Shown one piece after another: positions 3,351 to 56,259 of a stretch of 64,000 nt of DNA. The notes under the pieces are model-generated. The model was given only the letters and a program-made list of their open reading frames with translations. It was not told the origin of the DNA and did not search any database. The translations under genes and the position numbers were made by a program. The stretch's first letter is position 1, and every line of letters begins with the position of its first letter. The DNA comes from Berkelbacteria bacterium GW2011_GWE1_39_12. GTDB taxonomy: Bacteria > Patescibacteriota > UBA1384 > UBA12157. Location: positions 332,288 to 396,287 of the forward strand of contig CP011213.1 of the NCBI GenBank assembly GCA_001029735.1, written 5' to 3'.

Positions 3351-4231
3351 TTAACCTCAAAATAATGATTTCTACCGTTTATAATGGCCGAATACATTGT
3401 TTTAAACATTTTCTTGTCTCGTCTTTTTAGGGAAGAAGTACAGGCCCAGAAAAATTTATCGATAAAAAACAACGGGAAGGAAACTTTCGGGTAATTTTTT
3501 AGATAGAAGACTGCACCATTATGGATTAGCCAATACCTAAATTCATAAATATCATTGATCCGATTGCCGCCCGAACTGGTTCGGACATGACGCAAAATCG
3601 CCTTAGGATCAAAAACTAATTTGTAACCGGCACGCTTTACTCTTAAGGAGAAATCAGTTTCTTCCATATGGGCGTTACCCTTATAAATCTCTCCAAAACC
3701 ACCCACTTCCAGATAAACCTTTCTCAAACAACTGAAATTGCAACCGTAAGCATGATCGATTTCCTGTCTTTCGTCGGAATTAAAGTTGGTTATCTCCTTC
3801 AAACCGAAAAACTTCAATTTACCCGCTTCTTTCTTGATTGGCGGTTTTTCTTTAAAATCATATAGGACCCGCCCTCCAACCAAACCTACTTCTGGATCAG
3901 CATAATTTTCTAAATGATATTTAATAAAGTTCTTTTCTCTTATTTCCACATCGTCATCGACAAAGATGAGCAATTCTCCGTTTGCCTTTTTCACTGCTAA
4001 GTTTCTCGCGGCCGGCGAACTTTTAAGGTTGGTGCGAAAGTATTTAATAAGATTCTTATGCTCGTTGACGAAATTTAATACCTTAAGGCTCGGCTTCTCG
4101 GTTTGATCAGTTATTATTATCTCCATTGGGCTATATTCAAGGCTAACTAGGTCAGATAGCGTGTTTAAAAGAGCCTCTTCTCGTTGATAGGTTGGAATAA
4201 TAACGGAAACTTTTGGTGACTTATTTAGCAT
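3347..4231 (-). CDS. glycosyltransferase family 2
   Basis: VSVIIPTYQREEALLNTL... DDD region typical of GT2; 4-nt overlap with downstream gene. Confidence 0.8.
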   Translation of the reverse strand: MLNKSPKVSVIIPTYQREEALLNTLSDLVSLEYSPMEIIITDQTEKPSLKVLNFVNEHKNLIKYFRTNLKSSPAARNLAVKKANGELLIFVDDDVEIREKNFIKYHLENYADPEVGLVGGRVLYDFKEKPPIKKEAGKLKFFGLKEITNFNSDERQEIDHAYGCNFSCLRKVYLEVGGFGEIYKGNAHMEETDFSLRVKRAGYKLVFDPKAILRHVRTSSGGNRINDIYEFRYWLIHNGAVFYLKNYPKVSFPLFFIDKFFWACTSSLKRRDKKMFKTMYSAIINGRNHYFEVK

Positions 4232-5297
4232 TAAAAACTTCTTTGTAGACCTCTACGGTTTTTTTGGCCGTTTCTTCCCAAGAAAATTTACTGGCTTGCT
4301 CTAAGCCTTTTTCGCTCAATTCCTTGCAAAGATTAACGTCTGAGGAAAGTTTAACCATGGCATCGGTCCAGCCTTTCGAACCATGTGGGGGCAGCAGCAT
4401 TCCTGCTTCGCCCACAACTTCCGGAAGCGATGAGGTATTAGAAGAAATAACTGGTGTACCACAGGCCATCGCTTCGAGGGGCGGAAAACCAAACCCTTCA
4501 TATAATGACGGAAAAGTCAGAGCTGTCGCACCAGAATACAACGCCGGAATATCTTTATCTTCAGCATAGCCTGTAAAAATAACTTTACTAGACAGCTCAA
4601 GTTTACCAACTAAGCTGAATAAATCATCGTAATACCAGCCTTTTTTACCGACAATGACCAAATTTTCCTTGATCCCTTCTTTTACCGCTGATGCATAGAC
4701 TCGAACCAAAAAAGGTAAATTTTTTCTTGGTTCCAAGGTACCCACGTGAATAAAGTATTTTTCGCCGGTATTATACTTCTTTTTTACATCTTCCACCTGT
4801 TGAAGATCAAAAATCGGTCGAAAATCATGAGACACCGCCCAATACATAACTCTAATTTTTTCAGGGGCAATATTTAAGTATTCAACAATATCTTTTTTGG
4901 TATGCTCCGAGTCGACAATAATCATATCGGCTTTTCGGTATGAAAACGGCATCCATTTACTGTAAAAAAGACGACTGGCTAAAGGCAGGTTTTCCGGGAA
5001 TTTTATCGAAATAATGTCATGAATAGTGACGATAATTTTACCGCGATAAAGAATTGGTGCCGAAAAACAGGGTTGGTGTAGTATATCAACCTTTGCTTTT
5101 CTGGCCCTTTTGGGAAAACGAAACTGATCCCATATGAAACGCTGGGGAGTAGAAAAATCTTTATCTGTATCAGGGGCAATCAGAATATATTCGTTTTCGG
5201 GGTCGATTTTATTGAGATTTTCCACTAAATTTTTTACGTAGAAACCGAACCCACTCTTTTGGCCAAGGATAGTTTGAGTGTCTATTGCAATCCTCAT
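4221..5297 (-). CDS. glycosyltransferase family 4
   Basis: HVGTLEPRKN ... PSLYEGFGFPPLEAMACGTPVISS. ATG at 5295-5297 is preceded by GGAGAG SD; the ORF track extends to a TTG at 5315. Confidence 0.85.
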   Translation of the reverse strand: MRIAIDTQTILGQKSGFGFYVKNLVENLNKIDPENEYILIAPDTDKDFSTPQRFIWDQFRFPKRARKAKVDILHQPCFSAPILYRGKIIVTIHDIISIKFPENLPLASRLFYSKWMPFSYRKADMIIVDSEHTKKDIVEYLNIAPEKIRVMYWAVSHDFRPIFDLQQVEDVKKKYNTGEKYFIHVGTLEPRKNLPFLVRVYASAVKEGIKENLVIVGKKGWYYDDLFSLVGKLELSSKVIFTGYAEDKDIPALYSGATALTFPSLYEGFGFPPLEAMACGTPVISSNTSSLPEVVGEAGMLLPPHGSKGWTDAMVKLSSDVNLCKELSEKGLEQASKFSWEETAKKTVEVYKEVFNAK

Positions 5298-5515
5298 ATC
5301 TCTCCTCTTCCACAAGCGGTTTCGCGGAAATTTCTGCTGAAATTATAGAAACCGAACCCACTCTTTTGGCCAAGGATAGTTTGAGTGTCTATTGCAATCC
5401 TCATCTTTCTCCTTGTCTATTTGGGTTTCGCGGAATTTTTACTTGAGTAAAAATATAAAATCCGAAGCCAGATTTCTGACCTAATATGGTTTGTGTGTCG
5501 ATAGCAATTCTCATT
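5241..5515 (-). repeat. 3 tandem copies (~107-114 bp) of [spacer+RBS+first 60 nt of the GT4 gene]; copies 2 and 3 form short ORFs (5294..5404 and 5401..5514, minus strand)
   Basis: copy 1 (5241-5297) and copy 2 (5348-5404) are identical over 57 bp; copy 3 (5456-5515) is diverged; see findings. Confidence 0.9.
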
Positions 5516-6983
5516 CTGTCTCCGTTTTTTTACCTGGAAGTAAACTGGTAAACATTTCTTGGTTAATACCGCCGACAGCATAGAGAGCAACACCGTAAAC
5601 CAAGGCGGCTAAAACCATTAATAGGATAATATTGAGTGAATCCGCGGTAAAATACAAGAAAACGCCTAAAAATACACTGGCAAAGAGAACTTTCCATAAG
5701 ATTACCAGGCTAAGCTTGATCTCTAAATATTTATGCGCCACCCGCCATGAAAATACTAGCACCAAGATCTCTGTCATAACTGTTACAGCGGCGGCACCGA
5801 TATAAGAATAGTGAGGAATTAAAATAAAATTAGCAATAACATTAAAGAAAACCAAGATAACATAGGGCCAGATCATTTTTGATTGTTTACCCAGGGCAAT
5901 AACCAAATAGCCAAACATATAAGAGATAAAAGATAAACCAACAGCACAGACTAAAATTTGCAAAGCCGTTGGCGATGTCGCCGGCAGCCCTAAAACAGGA
6001 GGAATAGTGTGTGCTGTGACAAATTCTTGACCAGCCACAATTCTGATAATTCTCGTAGCAGTAAAAATGGTGCCAACAACTAGCGGCCAACCGAGAATAG
6101 TTAAAAAGTCAAAAGCTTTTTGTAAGACATTTTGTAATCTTTCATCCTTAGTTAAGATATATCGAGTCATTATTGGAAAAACGTTTCCCATGAAAATCGC
6201 TGGCAAAAACTGGAAGATTTCTAAAACCTTATAAGGAGGGCCGTAAATACCGATGTCGGTCGAAGTTTTCATTAAAGAGAGCATAACACTGTCGATTTTA
6301 AAATAAATTAACCCTAAAACTAGGACAATTCCCATTGGGACCGCTTGGCGAAAAAGTTCCCACCAATATTTAAAATCGAAAGTCGGACGGAAATGAACAT
6401 AAATTTTGCCAAGATAGGCGCTAGCAAAGAAGTTAATCATGTTGCCAATAGCATATGCCCAAAGAATTAGGTTCAAACCATAATTTTGCTTGATAAGGTA
6501 TAAGGTTAAAATCAAAATAACGGCACGGCCAATTACGTCGGTCATCGCCGCTTTATCCATTCTTAATTTATTCTGAAAAACACCCACATATGTCGAGTTC
6601 AAAGCTTGGAAAAGAGAGGCCAAGGCAGTAATACCAATGCCGAGCCTAAAGCCGTCATACTGCGGCACAAAAATCGCAATCAGAGTAGCGAGTCCAAAAA
6701 CCGCGATTCCGACGACAGTTCTCAAGGTTAAAATATTAGAGGTAGCCTTATCAATATCTGCGTCAGGTTTGGCTATCTCTCGGACAAAAATCCAAAAAAA
6801 GCCAAAGTCGGCAAAAACGCCAAAAAAAGCAAGGTAAGCGAAAATGGTTGTGTATTGACCAAACCCCGAAACACCAAGATGGCGCGTCAAAGAAGCAACC
6901 AATACCAAAGAAATCAAAGTCGTAATTACTTTGCCAACAATCTGAACAATCGTATTGTATGCCACTTTCCTCGTTAAGCTCAT
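5511..6983 (-). CDS. polysaccharide flippase (Wzx/MOP superfamily)
   Basis: 490 aa, ~12-14 predicted TM helices, N-terminus typical of Wzx-family; operon position upstream of the GT genes. Confidence 0.7.
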   Translation of the reverse strand: MSLTRKVAYNTIVQIVGKVITTLISLVLVASLTRHLGVSGFGQYTTIFAYLAFFGVFADFGFFWIFVREIAKPDADIDKATSNILTLRTVVGIAVFGLATLIAIFVPQYDGFRLGIGITALASLFQALNSTYVGVFQNKLRMDKAAMTDVIGRAVILILTLYLIKQNYGLNLILWAYAIGNMINFFASAYLGKIYVHFRPTFDFKYWWELFRQAVPMGIVLVLGLIYFKIDSVMLSLMKTSTDIGIYGPPYKVLEIFQFLPAIFMGNVFPIMTRYILTKDERLQNVLQKAFDFLTILGWPLVVGTIFTATRIIRIVAGQEFVTAHTIPPVLGLPATSPTALQILVCAVGLSFISYMFGYLVIALGKQSKMIWPYVILVFFNVIANFILIPHYSYIGAAAVTVMTEILVLVFSWRVAHKYLEIKLSLVILWKVLFASVFLGVFLYFTADSLNIILLMVLAALVYGVALYAVGGINQEMFTSLLPGKKTETE

Positions 6984-9956: not shown

Positions 9957-10083
9957 GGAGAGGGTCGCATAATAACATTGCTGATGCAAGAACGTTGTGT
10001 AACCTTCCTCGTTACATTCGGAAGGGTCGCATAAGCGAGCTTGTCCGACCATGGTATCGTAAAGTTTTGACAAACAATTTGTG
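9957..10083 (+). repeat. two ~63-bp units, each beginning with a copy of the tRNA-Ser 5' end (ggagagggtcgcata / ggaagggtcgcata)
   Basis: units start at 9957 and 10020; the tRNA starts at 10084 with ggaagggtcgcata. Confidence 0.75.
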
Positions 10084-10172
10084 GAAGGGTCGCATAGTGG
10101 CTTAGTGCGCTGGTCTTGAAAACCGGTAGGCCTGCAAGGGTCTCGTGAGTTCGAATCTCACCCCTTCCGCCA
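10084..10172 (+). tRNA. tRNA-Ser (anticodon TGA), long variable arm, CCA encoded
   Basis: GGAAGGG...ctggt-ctTGAaa-accgg...long variable arm...GTGAGTTCGAATCTCAC-CCCTTCC-G-CCA. Confidence 0.85.
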
Positions 10173-10211
10173 ATCCAAAGGAGAGAAATTAATAACTGGT
10201 GTACTTATATC

Positions 10212-10445
10212 TTGCAATGTTCAGACGGCACCTATTATACTGGGATAACAAACGATATAGAAAAGCGATTACTAGCTCATAATTCCGGTAAAGGTGCAAA
10301 GTATACATCCGGTAGAATTCCAGTAAAATTAGTTTATCGCAAAGAAAATCTGACCGAAAATCAAGCAAGAAAAAAAGAATTTACTCTGAAGACTCTTAGC
10401 CGAAAAGAGAAAGAGAAAATTATACACGGAGAGGTCGCACATTAA
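10212..10445 (+). CDS. GIY-YIG nuclease family protein (small URI-domain protein)
   Basis: [40 protein letters not shown]; no ATG, TTG start at 10212 or an unannotated upstream start; the 3' end HGEVAH* is encoded by a copy of the tRNA-Ser 5' sequence. Confidence 0.65.
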
Positions 10446-53138: not shown

Positions 53139-54800
53139 TCAGCGAATCTTGTGAATCGACGCACTATCCTCAAAAGTTTTAACGTTTTGACTTTCTTCCT
53201 CTAAACTTTCAATCACTTTTTTATAGTTTAGATAGTTAGCGTAAGCCGGATATGCCGATGGATCAGTATTACCAGGCGGATTAACGTCATCTAGAACATA
53301 AGAAATATTTTTATATTTTAGCTGAACATCTTTAATTAAATTTTGATAATTCTTTTGTATTTTCTTATCATCTTGATGCTTTCGATAGTTCTCAACCACT
53401 AAAATCTGCTCTTCTGTCAATTTCAGAGGTGTCATCCTTATATTGGTAGTTTTAACAGGTAAAAACAAGTTTGCGGCCGGATTATAAAGAATTGGAGCAT
53501 CTTTGGCGATATTTGAATCTATATAATCAACCTTAGCTTGATCTACCGGCCAGAACCAAATATGGTTGGTAAAAGTATTAGGAATTTCATTAAAACCATT
53601 GAAAATGACCGAGTTAATGATAACCAAATAACCAATCAAGCCAAAAACGAATATTTGTCCAAGGCGAATTCTATTAAGGTTTAATTCGAAGACATAGCGC
53701 CAAAGAAATGCAAGGGAAACAGTCAGCGGTAAGGCTAACTCTCTGGCAAATCGTCCAGGTACACTTGATTCGTTCAGCCTAGACATGACATAAAAAAATA
53801 TCAGCCAAATAATTACCAATTGTTTGGCTTTTTTATCTGTTTTTGTCGAAAAATTCGTCATTAAAAGATATATAAATCCAGCCAAACCAAAACACCAAAC
53901 CAAATTTCCTGCAAACGACGGATAATCATTATAGTCCGGAAGAATATTTAAGTAGTTATTCTTTAGAAACGGCGCATTTGTGAAAAACCCAATAATAAAA
54001 TTGGAAACCATGCCGCCGTATAGCAACTCAGACAAAAAGTATCCGGCGATTAAGAGAACCAAAAATATTCCGGTGCTCAAAACGACTTTGAGCGAAAGCT
54101 TTATTTTGCATGTAAAAATCTTTTGATAGAGCTGTATCAAGCCAAACACAAGTAAAATACTTAGAACATTAAAAAAAGTGAAATGGTGAGTCAAGGCAAT
54201 AAGCAATAGAAATAATCCCGACCAGACAAGGTTCAATTTTTTATTGGTTTTAAAATAACGGATTAAGAAGGCGAAAAGCATGACGGCAAAAAAACCGTAA
54301 GCCAGCATATCCGGGTAATTGCCGTCGATAAAACCATACAGGGGATATCCTGAGCTTAGGAGTAAAACAAAAGAGGTTAAAACGGAAACTTTCAAACTGA
54401 AAATTTGGCGCAACAAGAAAAACATGGCAAGCGTCGGTAGAATAATTAAGATTGGAGTTAAATTGGTTAAAACCCACCATATATCTCGATGAAAAAGCTT
54501 GCTAATGCCTATTACAATCAAATGAAAACCGGCAGGATAGGCGGAAAGATTAACTTTTCCGGCCACCATAACTGTTTTAATTAAATTATAATGACCGACA
54601 ACATCGTTTCCCGGAGGTACCAAAAAATGACGATGCCAATAAACATAGTAAATAATAAATATTTGAAGACTTAAGGCTAATAGCCCAATCCCAATCCAAA
54701 AATAGCGATAGAGTTTTGATCCTTGCATTAATAACCCCTTAGATAACAAATTTCCCAATAACTTAGAGGACCGTAATATCCCAATAAATTCCAATGTCAT
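53139..54800 (-). CDS. large polytopic membrane protein (putative GT-C/ArnT-like glycosyltransferase)
   Basis: 553 aa, ~12 TM. Confidence 0.35.
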   Translation of the reverse strand: MTLEFIGILRSSKLLGNLLSKGLLMQGSKLYRYFWIGIGLLALSLQIFIIYYVYWHRHFLVPPGNDVVGHYNLIKTVMVAGKVNLSAYPAGFHLIVIGISKLFHRDIWWVLTNLTPILIILPTLAMFFLLRQIFSLKVSVLTSFVLLLSSGYPLYGFIDGNYPDMLAYGFFAVMLFAFLIRYFKTNKKLNLVWSGLFLLLIALTHHFTFFNVLSILLVFGLIQLYQKIFTCKIKLSLKVVLSTGIFLVLLIAGYFLSELLYGGMVSNFIIGFFTNAPFLKNNYLNILPDYNDYPSFAGNLVWCFGLAGFIYLLMTNFSTKTDKKAKQLVIIWLIFFYVMSRLNESSVPGRFARELALPLTVSLAFLWRYVFELNLNRIRLGQIFVFGLIGYLVIINSVIFNGFNEIPNTFTNHIWFWPVDQAKVDYIDSNIAKDAPILYNPAANLFLPVKTTNIRMTPLKLTEEQILVVENYRKHQDDKKIQKNYQNLIKDVQLKYKNISYVLDDVNPPGNTDPSAYPAYANYLNYKKVIESLEEESQNVKTFEDSASIHKIR

Positions 54801-56259
54801 TTAACCAGGCAATACCATCGACAACCGGACGGAAATATTCTTTATAAGTACCTGGTACCATGTTGCTTGGAGCGGCCATCGTGAATCGAAATGTTGCAGT
54901 TTCACCTGGAGCAACGGAACTTTCCAACATGGTAATACGATTTGGCGATGACCAATTTTCTCTTCTGACAAAGCCGGTAATGCGATCTCTGCCTCTGTCG
55001 GTGCCTAAATGCATACTGGAATCCCAAGTGGCCGTGCCAGTATTTTTGATTTTTAAATTAAGATAAGCTGTTTCATTACGATTGACTGCAGGATAAGCAC
55101 TCTGAGAAACAAAGCTATATTGATATCGATTTGGGACTTGAACAACCGGAGCATTTGCAATATTAATATCCCAATAAATTCCAAGGTCATTCATCCAAGC
55201 AATCCCATCAACCACGGGTCGGAAGTATTCTCGGTAGGTTCCTGGAGCCATATTACTTGGAGCGGCCATCGTGAATCGAAATGTTGCAGTTTCACCTGGA
55301 GCAACGGAACTTTCCAACATCGTGATTCTATTAGCTGATGACCAAGTGTTTCCCCTAATGAAACCTGGGACACGATCTCTGCCTCTGTCGGTGCCTAAAT
55401 GCATACTGGAAGTCCAAGTGGCCGAACCGGTGTTTCTGACCGTTAAGTTAAAATAAGCCGTTTCATTTTGACGGATCGTCGGATAAGCGCTTTGTGAGAC
55501 AAAACTATACTGATAGATTGTGCTCCAAAGATTAAAATAAGTAGTAAAGTTTTGTCCTAAGTGAGGAGTATATCTATAAAGAGAAGCTGTAGCTCGGTTA
55601 GAGTATGTCACGCTTTGACCATCGATCGTAGCTGTCTGTCCAACCTGATAATCGGAAAAACCATGTCCTTGAGCTCTTTCGTAGTTGTACCTTAACTGCC
55701 AAGCAGCGTTTTCTATTTGCTTAGTAAAACCAACATAAGCGTCATTACAACCGCCGCCATCTGGACAACCGTAACCCATGGCCGCGTTCAAAGCTGATTG
55801 ATTTAAAGTTACAGAAGCTCCACCTGTAACCAAACCTTGCTCTTTTTGTAATGTAGCTAAAATAGCAACCGGATTAATAGTTCCGGTTGAAGAATTGATA
55901 TCAATTCCATTTAGCGCGCCAGAGGCATCGCCATAACCATGAGCGGCGTCATAAACTATTCGAGCGGCCGAGCGGCCATTTTCCGAATAAGTTTTTAGAA
56001 AAGTTCCGGTCGTGTTAAAAAGATCCTGTATACCAGCGGCGCTAATCCCTTCAACATTAATAAAAGCTGCATCTGCCACAAGATTATTGGGATCGAAACT
56101 AGCTTTGGCTGTTTGATTTTGCGAAAGAGGAGCACCAAAATAAAAGGTGGTAAAAATCAGTGTGACCAATAGAACAATATGGACAATTTTTTTCAAAAAC
56201 CCCTCCATTATTAAAACCGCTAAGTTATTTAATTTTATCAATTTATGTCTTATTGTCAA
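54763..56259 (-). CDS. secreted protein with two tandem ~130-aa Ig-like repeats
   Basis: N-terminal signal/TM; C-terminal half is two near-identical repeats (DNA units ~390 bp at ~54780-55170 and ~55170-55560). Confidence 0.55.
   Translation of the reverse strand: MTIRHKLIKLNNLAVLIMEGFLKKIVHIVLLVTLIFTTFYFGAPLSQNQTAKASFDPNNLVADAAFINVEGISAAGIQDLFNTTGTFLKTYSENGRSAARIVYDAAHGYGDASGALNGIDINSSTGTINPVAILATLQKEQGLVTGGASVTLNQSALNAAMGYGCPDGGGCNDAYVGFTKQIENAAWQLRYNYERAQGHGFSDYQVGQTATIDGQSVTYSNRATASLYRYTPHLGQNFTTYFNLWSTIYQYSFVSQSAYPTIRQNETAYFNLTVRNTGSATWTSSMHLGTDRGRDRVPGFIRGNTWSSANRITMLESSVAPGETATFRFTMAAPSNMAPGTYREYFRPVVDGIAWMNDLGIYWDINIANAPVVQVPNRYQYSFVSQSAYPAVNRNETAYLNLKIKNTGTATWDSSMHLGTDRGRDRITGFVRRENWSSPNRITMLESSVAPGETATFRFTMAAPSNMVPGTYKEYFRPVVDGIAWLNDIGIYWDITVL

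Follow-up and report, generated by a model that had tools for sequence, protein, structure and literature searches.

In termination-reinitiation coupling, the stop codon of one frame and the start codon of the next share the tetranucleotide ATGA, and the Shine-Dalgarno sequence of the downstream frame lies in the 3' end of the upstream one. Both features are found between a Wzx-type polysaccharide flippase gene and a GT4 glycosyltransferase gene of Berkelbacteria bacterium GW2011_GWE1_39_12, within a 64 kb stretch of contig CP011213.1 (hereafter the window, whose own position numbers are used). Two short open reading frames (mini-ORFs), each beginning with a copy of the first 20 GT4 codons, stand between the two genes, and the flippase, the mini-ORFs and GT4 form four frames chained via three ATGA stop/start overlaps. 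We call this arrangement the array. It recurs in 11 lineages and bears signatures of constraint on the 19-20-residue peptide, the spacer hairpin and the frame length. On balance, the array is probably a translated leader in front of GT4, which would have arisen by an old partial tandem duplication of the 5' end of the gene and have been kept by selection. The ancestral flippase-GT4 junction is itself of the ATGA-coupled type (loci L016, L031, L033 and L034 of our comparison). The array differs from ordinary coupling in that its upstream frames are not genes but 36-45-codon copies of the downstream start, up to three deep, and in that the first 19-20 codons of these frames are conserved as peptide.

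Leader-peptide attenuators (ermC, cat/cmlA and the leaders of amino-acid operons) resemble the array in that a short leader, served by a Shine-Dalgarno sequence of its own, closely precedes the regulated gene and a conserved hairpin takes in the 3' coding part of the leader. In the array, however, the conserved hairpin comes to an end about 20 nucleotides (nt) before the GT4 ATG and does not cover the GT4 Shine-Dalgarno sequence, no terminator, conserved alternative pairing or regulatory codon run was found in its units, and the leader copies the N-terminus of the regulated gene. Attenuation of the erm/cat or trp type was rejected, as the array has the leader frame with its own ribosome-binding site but neither a sequestering hairpin nor a terminator with alternative pairing. 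As judged from its sequence, the array would operate like an ATGA-coupled operon junction, and its likeness to attenuators appears superficial. The leaders SecM, MifM and VemP have signals for export or insertion together with defined arrest motifs. They share with the array that the amino-acid sequence of the leader, and not its mere translation, is under selection, but no comparable export signal or arrest motif was identified in the array peptide.

Three further systems bear on how such an arrangement could form or be read. When prophages e14 and 21 integrate at icd, and in tRNA-gene integration, the two copies are held apart by a large element, which carries the duplicate, and the displaced fragment no longer functions. 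The array likewise shows a duplicated gene end that differs mainly at synonymous sites, but only 38-74 nt separate its copies, the upstream copy is intact and no element with a recombinase lies between them. Tandem repeats in concerted evolution show tracts of identity bounded by diverged sequence, as do 5 of the 12 array units; the other seven have escaped homogenisation and are synonymously saturated yet identical in peptide. In the translational bypassing of phage T4 gene 60 the ribosome crosses a gap of 50 nt. The array has a hairpin right after the would-be take-off codon, a stop that follows directly in L020 and L022, and matching codons downstream, but the gap would be 98-134 nt. Bypass is very unlikely here, since the downstream copy retains its Shine-Dalgarno sequence and ATG in every lineage, which makes bypass unnecessary.

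Upstream copies of the gene start and the constraints on them

All three units of the array, namely mini-ORF 3, mini-ORF 2 and GT4 itself (Table 1), open with MRIAIDTQTILGQKSGFGFY and are spaced 110 and 107 nt apart. We denote the gene start N1, its upstream copies N2 and N3, and the spacers that follow the copies S2 and S3. The window contains exactly three instances of the 26-nt start motif, where the chance expectation is 0, and both spacers carry AAATT(T)CCGCGAAACC and a GGAG-type Shine-Dalgarno sequence. A preliminary description of this DNA had reported the ATGA-chained mini-ORFs and a GGAG-type Shine-Dalgarno sequence ahead of each of the three starts; both observations hold, the former in every coordinate. 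N2 differs from the gene start solely at codon 20 (TAT versus TAC), and the identity first noted over 57 nt in fact covers 59 of 60 nt. Between N3 and N2 there are 16 nt differences, spread over 14 codons; against the gene start, N3 has 17 in 60 nt, over 15 codons. All of these differences are synonymous, as had been noticed, including a switch between serine codon families (TCT versus AGT); the figure of about 17 nt earlier given for N3 against N2 applies to N3 against the gene. When 16 substitutions were placed at random, none of 200,000 trials yielded an all-synonymous outcome.

The same pattern is found across lineages. Comparison of each upstream copy with its own gene gave 83 differing codons that are synonymous and 5 that are non-synonymous (5.7%); a later locus, L030, adds 4 synonymous and 0 non-synonymous differences, for a total of 87 versus 5. 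The non-synonymous share is 15.5% among the functional starts of the array lineages and 18.5% among their upstream copies, and 77% of random single-base changes are expected to be non-synonymous. Seven units have reached synonymous saturation, with 8-17 synonymous nt differences per 57-60 nt and only 0-2 non-synonymous codons among codons 2-19. A neutral upstream copy would show mostly non-synonymous differences, and gene conversion therefore cannot explain these seven saturated, peptide-identical units. The constraint also holds in the arrays that were found with no requirement for an upstream copy (window, L027, L028). Three of the five non-synonymous codons and the sole frameshift belong to L019 and L021, both of which have a GIY-YIG insertion just upstream; L028, a close relative of L019 without the insertion, has an intact upstream copy. 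These comparative data bear out the suggestion that the most diverged copy (N3) is not a decaying duplicate, and among the options offered for it, purifying selection on the peptide fits them best.

Two main types of spacer could be distinguished. The commoner, S_a, is found in both window units and in L017, L018, L019, L027, L028 and L030, and in degenerate form in L021; L020 and L022 have S_b, and the spacer of L023 belongs to neither type. Spacer identity across lineages is 0.61-0.94, while fourfold degenerate sites of GT4 in the same pairs are saturated or nearly so at 0.24-0.54 (0.87 versus 0.35 for L017/L027, 0.79 versus 0.24 for L020/L022, and 0.94 versus 0.51 for L028/L019). The tail peptides encoded by the spacers are mutually frameshifted though the DNA is conserved, which indicates that the constraint acts on nucleotides and not on the tail peptide. 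As to the origin of the spacer, it shows weak similarity to nt 61-135 of the gene itself (combined p=0.024) and none of significance to the flippase tail (p=0.13). The spacer core occurs nowhere outside arrays in the window or in the compared loci, and a genome-wide repeat or miniature inverted-repeat transposable element was rejected as its source on that ground.

The S_a units share a predicted hairpin in which stem P1, GGUUUC of codons 18-19 paired with GAAACC, encloses a 7-bp stem P2 (AUUUUUC/GAAAAAU) and a variable loop. Four pairs of P2 are altered on both sides, i.e. in a compensatory manner. Consensus pairing is realised in 95.6% of cells, against 86% in shuffled sequences (0 of 500 shuffles reaching it) and at most 66% with slid partners. 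Local fold z-scores range from -0.5 to -3.6 in S_a units and stand at +0.26 at the same offset in functional genes, and in L030 both stems are preserved around a 24-nt loop insertion.

The reading frame is retained as well. Unit length is ≡ 2 mod 3 in 8 of 9 S_a units (110, 107, 110, 110, 110, 113, 134 and 101 nt), and the mini-ORF stop thereby stays inside ATGA. Indels of 3, 3, 9 and 24 nt, as well as internally compensated frameshifts, have left this position intact. Eight of the 12 units end in ATGA, L028 stops 2 nt ahead of the start, and all others terminate before the GT4 start. Since other frames would fuse the leader to GT4 or carry ribosomes over its start, the pattern implies that the mini-ORFs are translated, and it is an indirect sign that GT4 translation may depend on translation of the upstream frame. 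The earlier proposal that the mini-ORFs modulate translational coupling receives indirect support from the stops held in ATGA. GGAG, AGGA or AAGG lies 5-12 nt ahead of every downstream start, inside the 3' end of the upstream frame, and every upstream copy has its own Shine-Dalgarno sequence save those of L019 and L021, which have the GIY-YIG insertion just upstream.

Recurrence, recombination and assembly support

The 11 lineages with arrays comprise 12 units, two of them in the window and the remainder in 10 further lineages from varied samples and assemblers. They were reached by several routes: L017; six metagenome contigs (L018-L023) via the two-copy pattern; L027 and L028, met in homolog look-ups without prior knowledge of the junction; and L030, reached via a called 45-residue mini-ORF, when a query of concatenated mini-ORF proteins gave 5 matches, one of them useful. 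The duplicated segment, M[RK]IAIDTQT[TI]LGQK[ST]GFGFYVKNL, is the most conserved stretch of the GT4 family, nearly constant in 120 homologs of only 59-82% overall identity. In the GT4 tree, arrays are limited to one subclade and interspersed with members that have a single junction. The simple junction is seen in L029, L031, L033 and L034 in addition to L016, with the flippase TGA directly overlapping the GT4 ATG in L016, L031, L033 and L034. No decayed relics of a copy or spacer were found upstream of GT4 in 12 single-junction loci. Loss of the array should be easy, because recombination between two copies restores a clean junction. In two Logan assemblies from sister samples (SRR30681630 for L027, SRR30681629 for L029), the two contigs share their first 30 nt (positions 1-30), which belong to the flippase tail, and part from there, the first running into an array and the second into a single junction. 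This apparent branch point of the assembly graph may reflect both junction states coexisting in one community.

Exchange of sequence between copies is directly visible. N2 of the window and the L018 copy are the same as the gene start bar codon 20, though their spacers are old, and identical 3' tracts of 29-45 nt stand beside diverged 5' codons in L027 (29 nt), L028 (45 nt) and L030 (codons 8-20). Window unit 2 is not a fresh duplicate, because S2 is an old S_a-type spacer just 67% identical to S3; N2 has most likely been homogenised by gene conversion. Frequent conversion between copies accounts for the agreement of the upstream peptide with its own gene. Import from a diverged allele finds no support in the flanks. 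Flippase and GT4 identities are concordant (81/82% for window/L016, 86-92% in the L017/L028/L019 clade, 72/79% for L021/L023), sister lineages compared by nucleotide identity give flat profiles as far as the array, and none of the upstream copies is close to a sampled functional start (minimum distance 8-12 of 57 nt). We therefore rejected the model of an imported allele, under which N3 had been seen as the N-terminus of a diverged homologous gene, as no donor-like start was found. The idea of a scar or stack left by cassette exchange at the junction likewise does not agree with the concordant identities, the flat profiles or the conservation of spacers amid saturated synonymous sites. Single cases may differ. 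L027 looks as if it had recombined between lineages: its flippase tail, its spacer and its upstream copy in the 5' half are similar to those of the L017/L019/L028 clade, but its GT4 is not.

The same organism has been assembled independently as a draft (L015; GCA_003509005.1, DODL01000009.1), in which the order is N3-S3-N2 ... N2-S2-N1, but unit 2 is interrupted by an 'NN' scaffold gap and contains an additional, incomplete N2 (L015:2870-2895). Because of this gap and partial copy, the third unit rests on one clean assembly, whereas two-unit arrays are backed by 10 other assemblies (MEGAHIT, JGI, Logan). The L015 flippase is called as two genes of 231 and 250 residues; this split and the gap are probably an assembly or frameshift problem of the draft.

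Features of the locus and its neighbours

The features of the array in the window are listed in Table 1.

Table 1. Positions of the flippase-GT4 junction and its array in the window.
Feature	Position	Strand	Description
Wzx-type polysaccharide flippase gene	6983..5511	minus	490 residues; open reading frame list; Pfam Polysacc_synt E=1e-29
Flippase TGA / mini-ORF 3 ATG	5513..5511 / 5514..5512	minus	stop/start overlap
Shine-Dalgarno GGAG of mini-ORF 3	5520..5523	minus	within flippase tail; context ACGGAGACAGA then ATG
Mini-ORF 3 (unit 1)	5514..5401	minus	'copy 3' of the preliminary description; 37 codons, MRIAIDTQTILGQKSGFGFYIFTQVKIPRNPNRQGER
N3	5455..5514	minus	upstream copy of first 20 GT4 codons
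S3	5405..5454	minus	50-nt S_a-type spacer; core AAATTCCGCGAAACC at 5438..5424; Shine-Dalgarno of next start AAGGAGA
S3 inner hairpin stem	within 5405..5454	minus	ATTTTTAC/GTAAAAAT
Unit 1 predicted hairpin	5424..5469	minus	begins near codon 16-18 of mini-ORF 3; local fold z=-1.49; consensus with compensatory pairs
Mini-ORF 2 ATG	5404..5402	minus	overlapped by mini-ORF 3 TGA
Mini-ORF 2 (unit 2)	5404..5294	minus	36 codons, ends ...GFGFYNFSRNFRETACGRGEI
N2	5345..5404	minus	upstream copy of first 20 GT4 codons
S2	5298..5344	minus	47-nt S_a-type spacer; core AATTTCCGCGAAACC at 5332..5318; Shine-Dalgarno GAGGAGA
Unit 2 predicted hairpin	5317..5354	minus	P1 CGGTTTC/GAAACCG; P2 AATTTC/GAAATT
GT4 ATG	5297..5295	minus	overlapped by mini-ORF 2 TGA
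GT4 glycosyltransferase gene	5297..4221	minus	358 residues; Pfam Glycos_transf_1 / Glyco_transf_4
N1	5297..5238	minus	first 20 GT4 codons, template of the copies

The GT4 protein matches a Candidatus Berkelbacteria (Patescibacteria) protein at 100%. One GT2 gene and two further GT4 genes follow it on the 3' side, and a Pfam search of the genes neighbouring the array returned the flippase, glycosyltransferases and a response regulator. At gathering score, Rfam found three tRNAs only in the whole window and no match at 5241-5520. Tandem Repeats Finder did not call the array, because its spacers are too diverged. Inside the array there is no promoter-like site above background and no convincing terminator, which fits co-transcription with the flippase. 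A terminator-like hairpin, AGGTCAGAAATCTGGCTT then CGGATTTTAT, lies within N3 (5465-5482, minus strand); the number of terminator-like sites in the region is not above shuffled expectation, and the pairing derives from the Gln-Lys and Phe-Gly-Phe codons, which can pair likewise in the functional gene start. Pairing with an antisense or small RNA was rejected as the cause of the codon pattern, since many of the synonymous differences are transversions. A -1 frameshift was also rejected, as no slippery site is present and the -1 frame of window unit 2 is closed by a TAA at the junction of copy and spacer.

Gene callers mis-annotate array loci, a practical warning for users of such annotations. 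Most mini-ORFs are uncalled, those of L028 and L030 being the only ones called, and at L017:1308-2636 (P0068) the GT4 gene is called 83 residues too long, through the spacer and upstream copy in another frame, which yields a false protein of 442 residues. Elsewhere in the window, a candidate second echo of a gene start at 54800 was rejected as an internal domain repeat of the upstream protein in another frame. The 498-residue frame at 54763-56259 (minus strand) contains the internal repeat ...PGTY[RK]EYFRPVVDGIAW[ML]ND[LI]GIYWDI..., which in the other frame imitates a duplicated start of the open reading frame 53139..54800, and the start of the latter is doubtful.

The junction has also received mobile DNA. 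In L019 and L021 an 88-residue GIY-YIG gene (Pfam PF01541, E=4e-17) lies exactly between the flippase stop and the ATG of the upstream copy (L019 oriented 9960-10245, locus minus strand; L021 oriented 6215-6510). Its TGA overlaps that ATG, and it is bounded by perfect 15-bp inverted repeats, ATCCCGTTAGAGATA / TATCTCTAACGGGAT. The two copies of the gene are 87% identical in nucleotides amid flanks whose GT4 fourfold sites are 27% identical, so that the gene resembles a small element that was mobile recently and favours a particular site. Such a homing endonuclease or small transposable element is present in these two loci alone and not in the window, and is a neighbour of the array. Three differing hairpin or inverted-repeat elements were also observed between the upstream gene and the array (L017:1363-1446, L018:3040-3123, L027:73-148), that of L017 belonging to a type whose translation reads 'IPAFAGMT'. 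Small insertions seem to have a hot spot at this junction, and every one lies upstream of the array rather than within it.

Explanations of the array and their weight

In the reading that we favour, a ribosome would end the flippase on the TGA of the first ATGA and restart on the overlapping ATG of mini-ORF 3. It would then translate 37 codons, opening the hairpin from codon 18 onwards, stop on the next ATGA, restart on mini-ORF 2 for 36 codons, stop at the third ATGA and restart on GT4. The Shine-Dalgarno sequence of each unit would also permit direct entry of ribosomes. The leader would thus relay ribosomes and tune the amount of GT4 made per flippase message.

Several observations weigh against this reading. 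To our knowledge, no known coupling mechanism requires a specific 19-residue peptide. The array is patchy and a minority state, present in 2 of 9 homolog look-ups chosen regardless of the junction, and is on that account dispensable; the GTDB representatives are all without it and ten reference genomes are single-copy. The closest relative, L016 (82% amino-acid identity), lacks it, its flippase TGA directly overlapping the GT4 ATG. A single-unit relative had been named in advance as a sign of recent neutral duplication; the relative exists, but the array is old and found in many lineages, which argues against recency. The distribution of S_a and S_b spacers disagrees with the GT4 tree, which could reflect lateral spread, and L027 may be a recombinant exception. 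Copies are fully or partially homogenised in 5 of 12 units, and the pattern used on metagenomes demanded intact codons 1-9 in both copies, which biases six loci. The hairpin is A/U-rich and weak, whole-unit RNA folds are no more stable than shuffles with signal only in the segment from codon 16, and in the S_b units (L020, L022) no hairpin signal is seen and the frame closes at codon 20, leaving about 40 nt to the GT4 start.

Some of these observations are also what a neutral structural variant would lead one to expect, in which functionless copies are overwritten by gene conversion and diverge synonymously through recombination with alleles of related lineages. This is the workable form of the cassette-exchange idea. 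Conversion is complete in window unit 2 and L018 and partial in L027, L028 and L030, the mixed affinities of L027 look like import, the distribution is patchy with spacer types off the GT4 tree, and the upstream peptide is nearer to its own gene than to those of other lineages (the 5.7% against 15.5% above), as conversion predicts. We nevertheless regard this explanation as rather unlikely. Differences left by conversion should be mostly non-synonymous, and the seven saturated units have almost none; frequent imports should leave mosaic flanks, and those examined are concordant and flat, with no upstream copy near a sampled functional start. Spacer conservation, compensatory changes in the hairpin and the retained frame are also left unaccounted for. 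A different weight on the same constraint would make the 19-20-residue peptide itself the functional product, either a micropeptide acting in trans by mimicking the enzyme N-terminus or a nascent chain pausing or sensing in cis, with coupling secondary. Constraint at the amino-acid level that tolerates nearly any synonymous change, including Ser TCN/AGY switches, speaks for it, as do the frames of L020 and L022, which consist of exactly 19 conserved residues and then TGA, and the agreement of the variable residues R2, V7, I10, M11 and T15 with the GT4 of their own lineage. The peptide, however, makes up the first beta-strand and the glycine loop in a GT-B fold of the ordinary kind and would not readily pass for a module of its own. 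It has no match in Pfam, and gene conversion can also yield the matching of variable residues. We consider the peptide as main product improbable.

Two further explanations concern how the copies came to stand in tandem. The duplicated start and spacer could be a footprint of mobile DNA, left by an element inserting at or excising from the conserved gene start as happens with integrative elements that disrupt the end of a gene and bring along a substitute for it. The insertion hot spot at the junction, with the GIY-YIG gene and its terminal inverted repeats and the hairpin elements upstream of the copy in L017, L018 and L027, would suit such an origin, which we nonetheless find most improbable. 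The elements lie upstream of the array and never between the copies, and the spacer core, found only in arrays, is unrelated to their inverted repeats; they are therefore neighbours of the array and not its cause. A displaced gene fragment should moreover decay, which the upstream copies do not, and no recombinase gene was found among the neighbouring genes. That strain variants were chained in tandem during assembly is hardly credible, even though the gap and partial extra copy in unit 2 of L015 are what such an error would leave. The two-copy form is present in ten other assemblies, the identical stretch of only 59 nt is below sequencing-read length, and S2 and S3, at 67% identity, are too unlike to be strain variants of a genome with identical GT4.

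The peptide of the array, the same as the enzyme N-terminus down to lineage-specific residues, might also have a sequence-specific role, which would make the mini-ORF a 'self-mimic' leader. We put this forward tentatively and think it rather doubtful. The nascent chain could modulate termination and restart at the GT4 start, or the micropeptide could compete with the N-terminus of the enzyme. Literature searches turned up no leader that repeats the N-terminus of the protein it precedes. If true, a regulatory leader would have been born from the start of the gene it regulates.

Short upstream frames in bacteria are usually judged by their translation; conservation of their sequence is rare. In the array, the first 20 codons of a gene have become a probable leader whose peptide has lasted through full synonymous turnover in many lineages of uncultured Patescibacteria. 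Should its function be confirmed, the array would be a clean natural example of a partial duplication turned into a regulatory leader, and would allow selection at the peptide level to be tested on an upstream frame of 19 residues. It would also offer a handle on how the balance between a flippase and the first transferase of surface-polysaccharide synthesis is set in reduced genomes.

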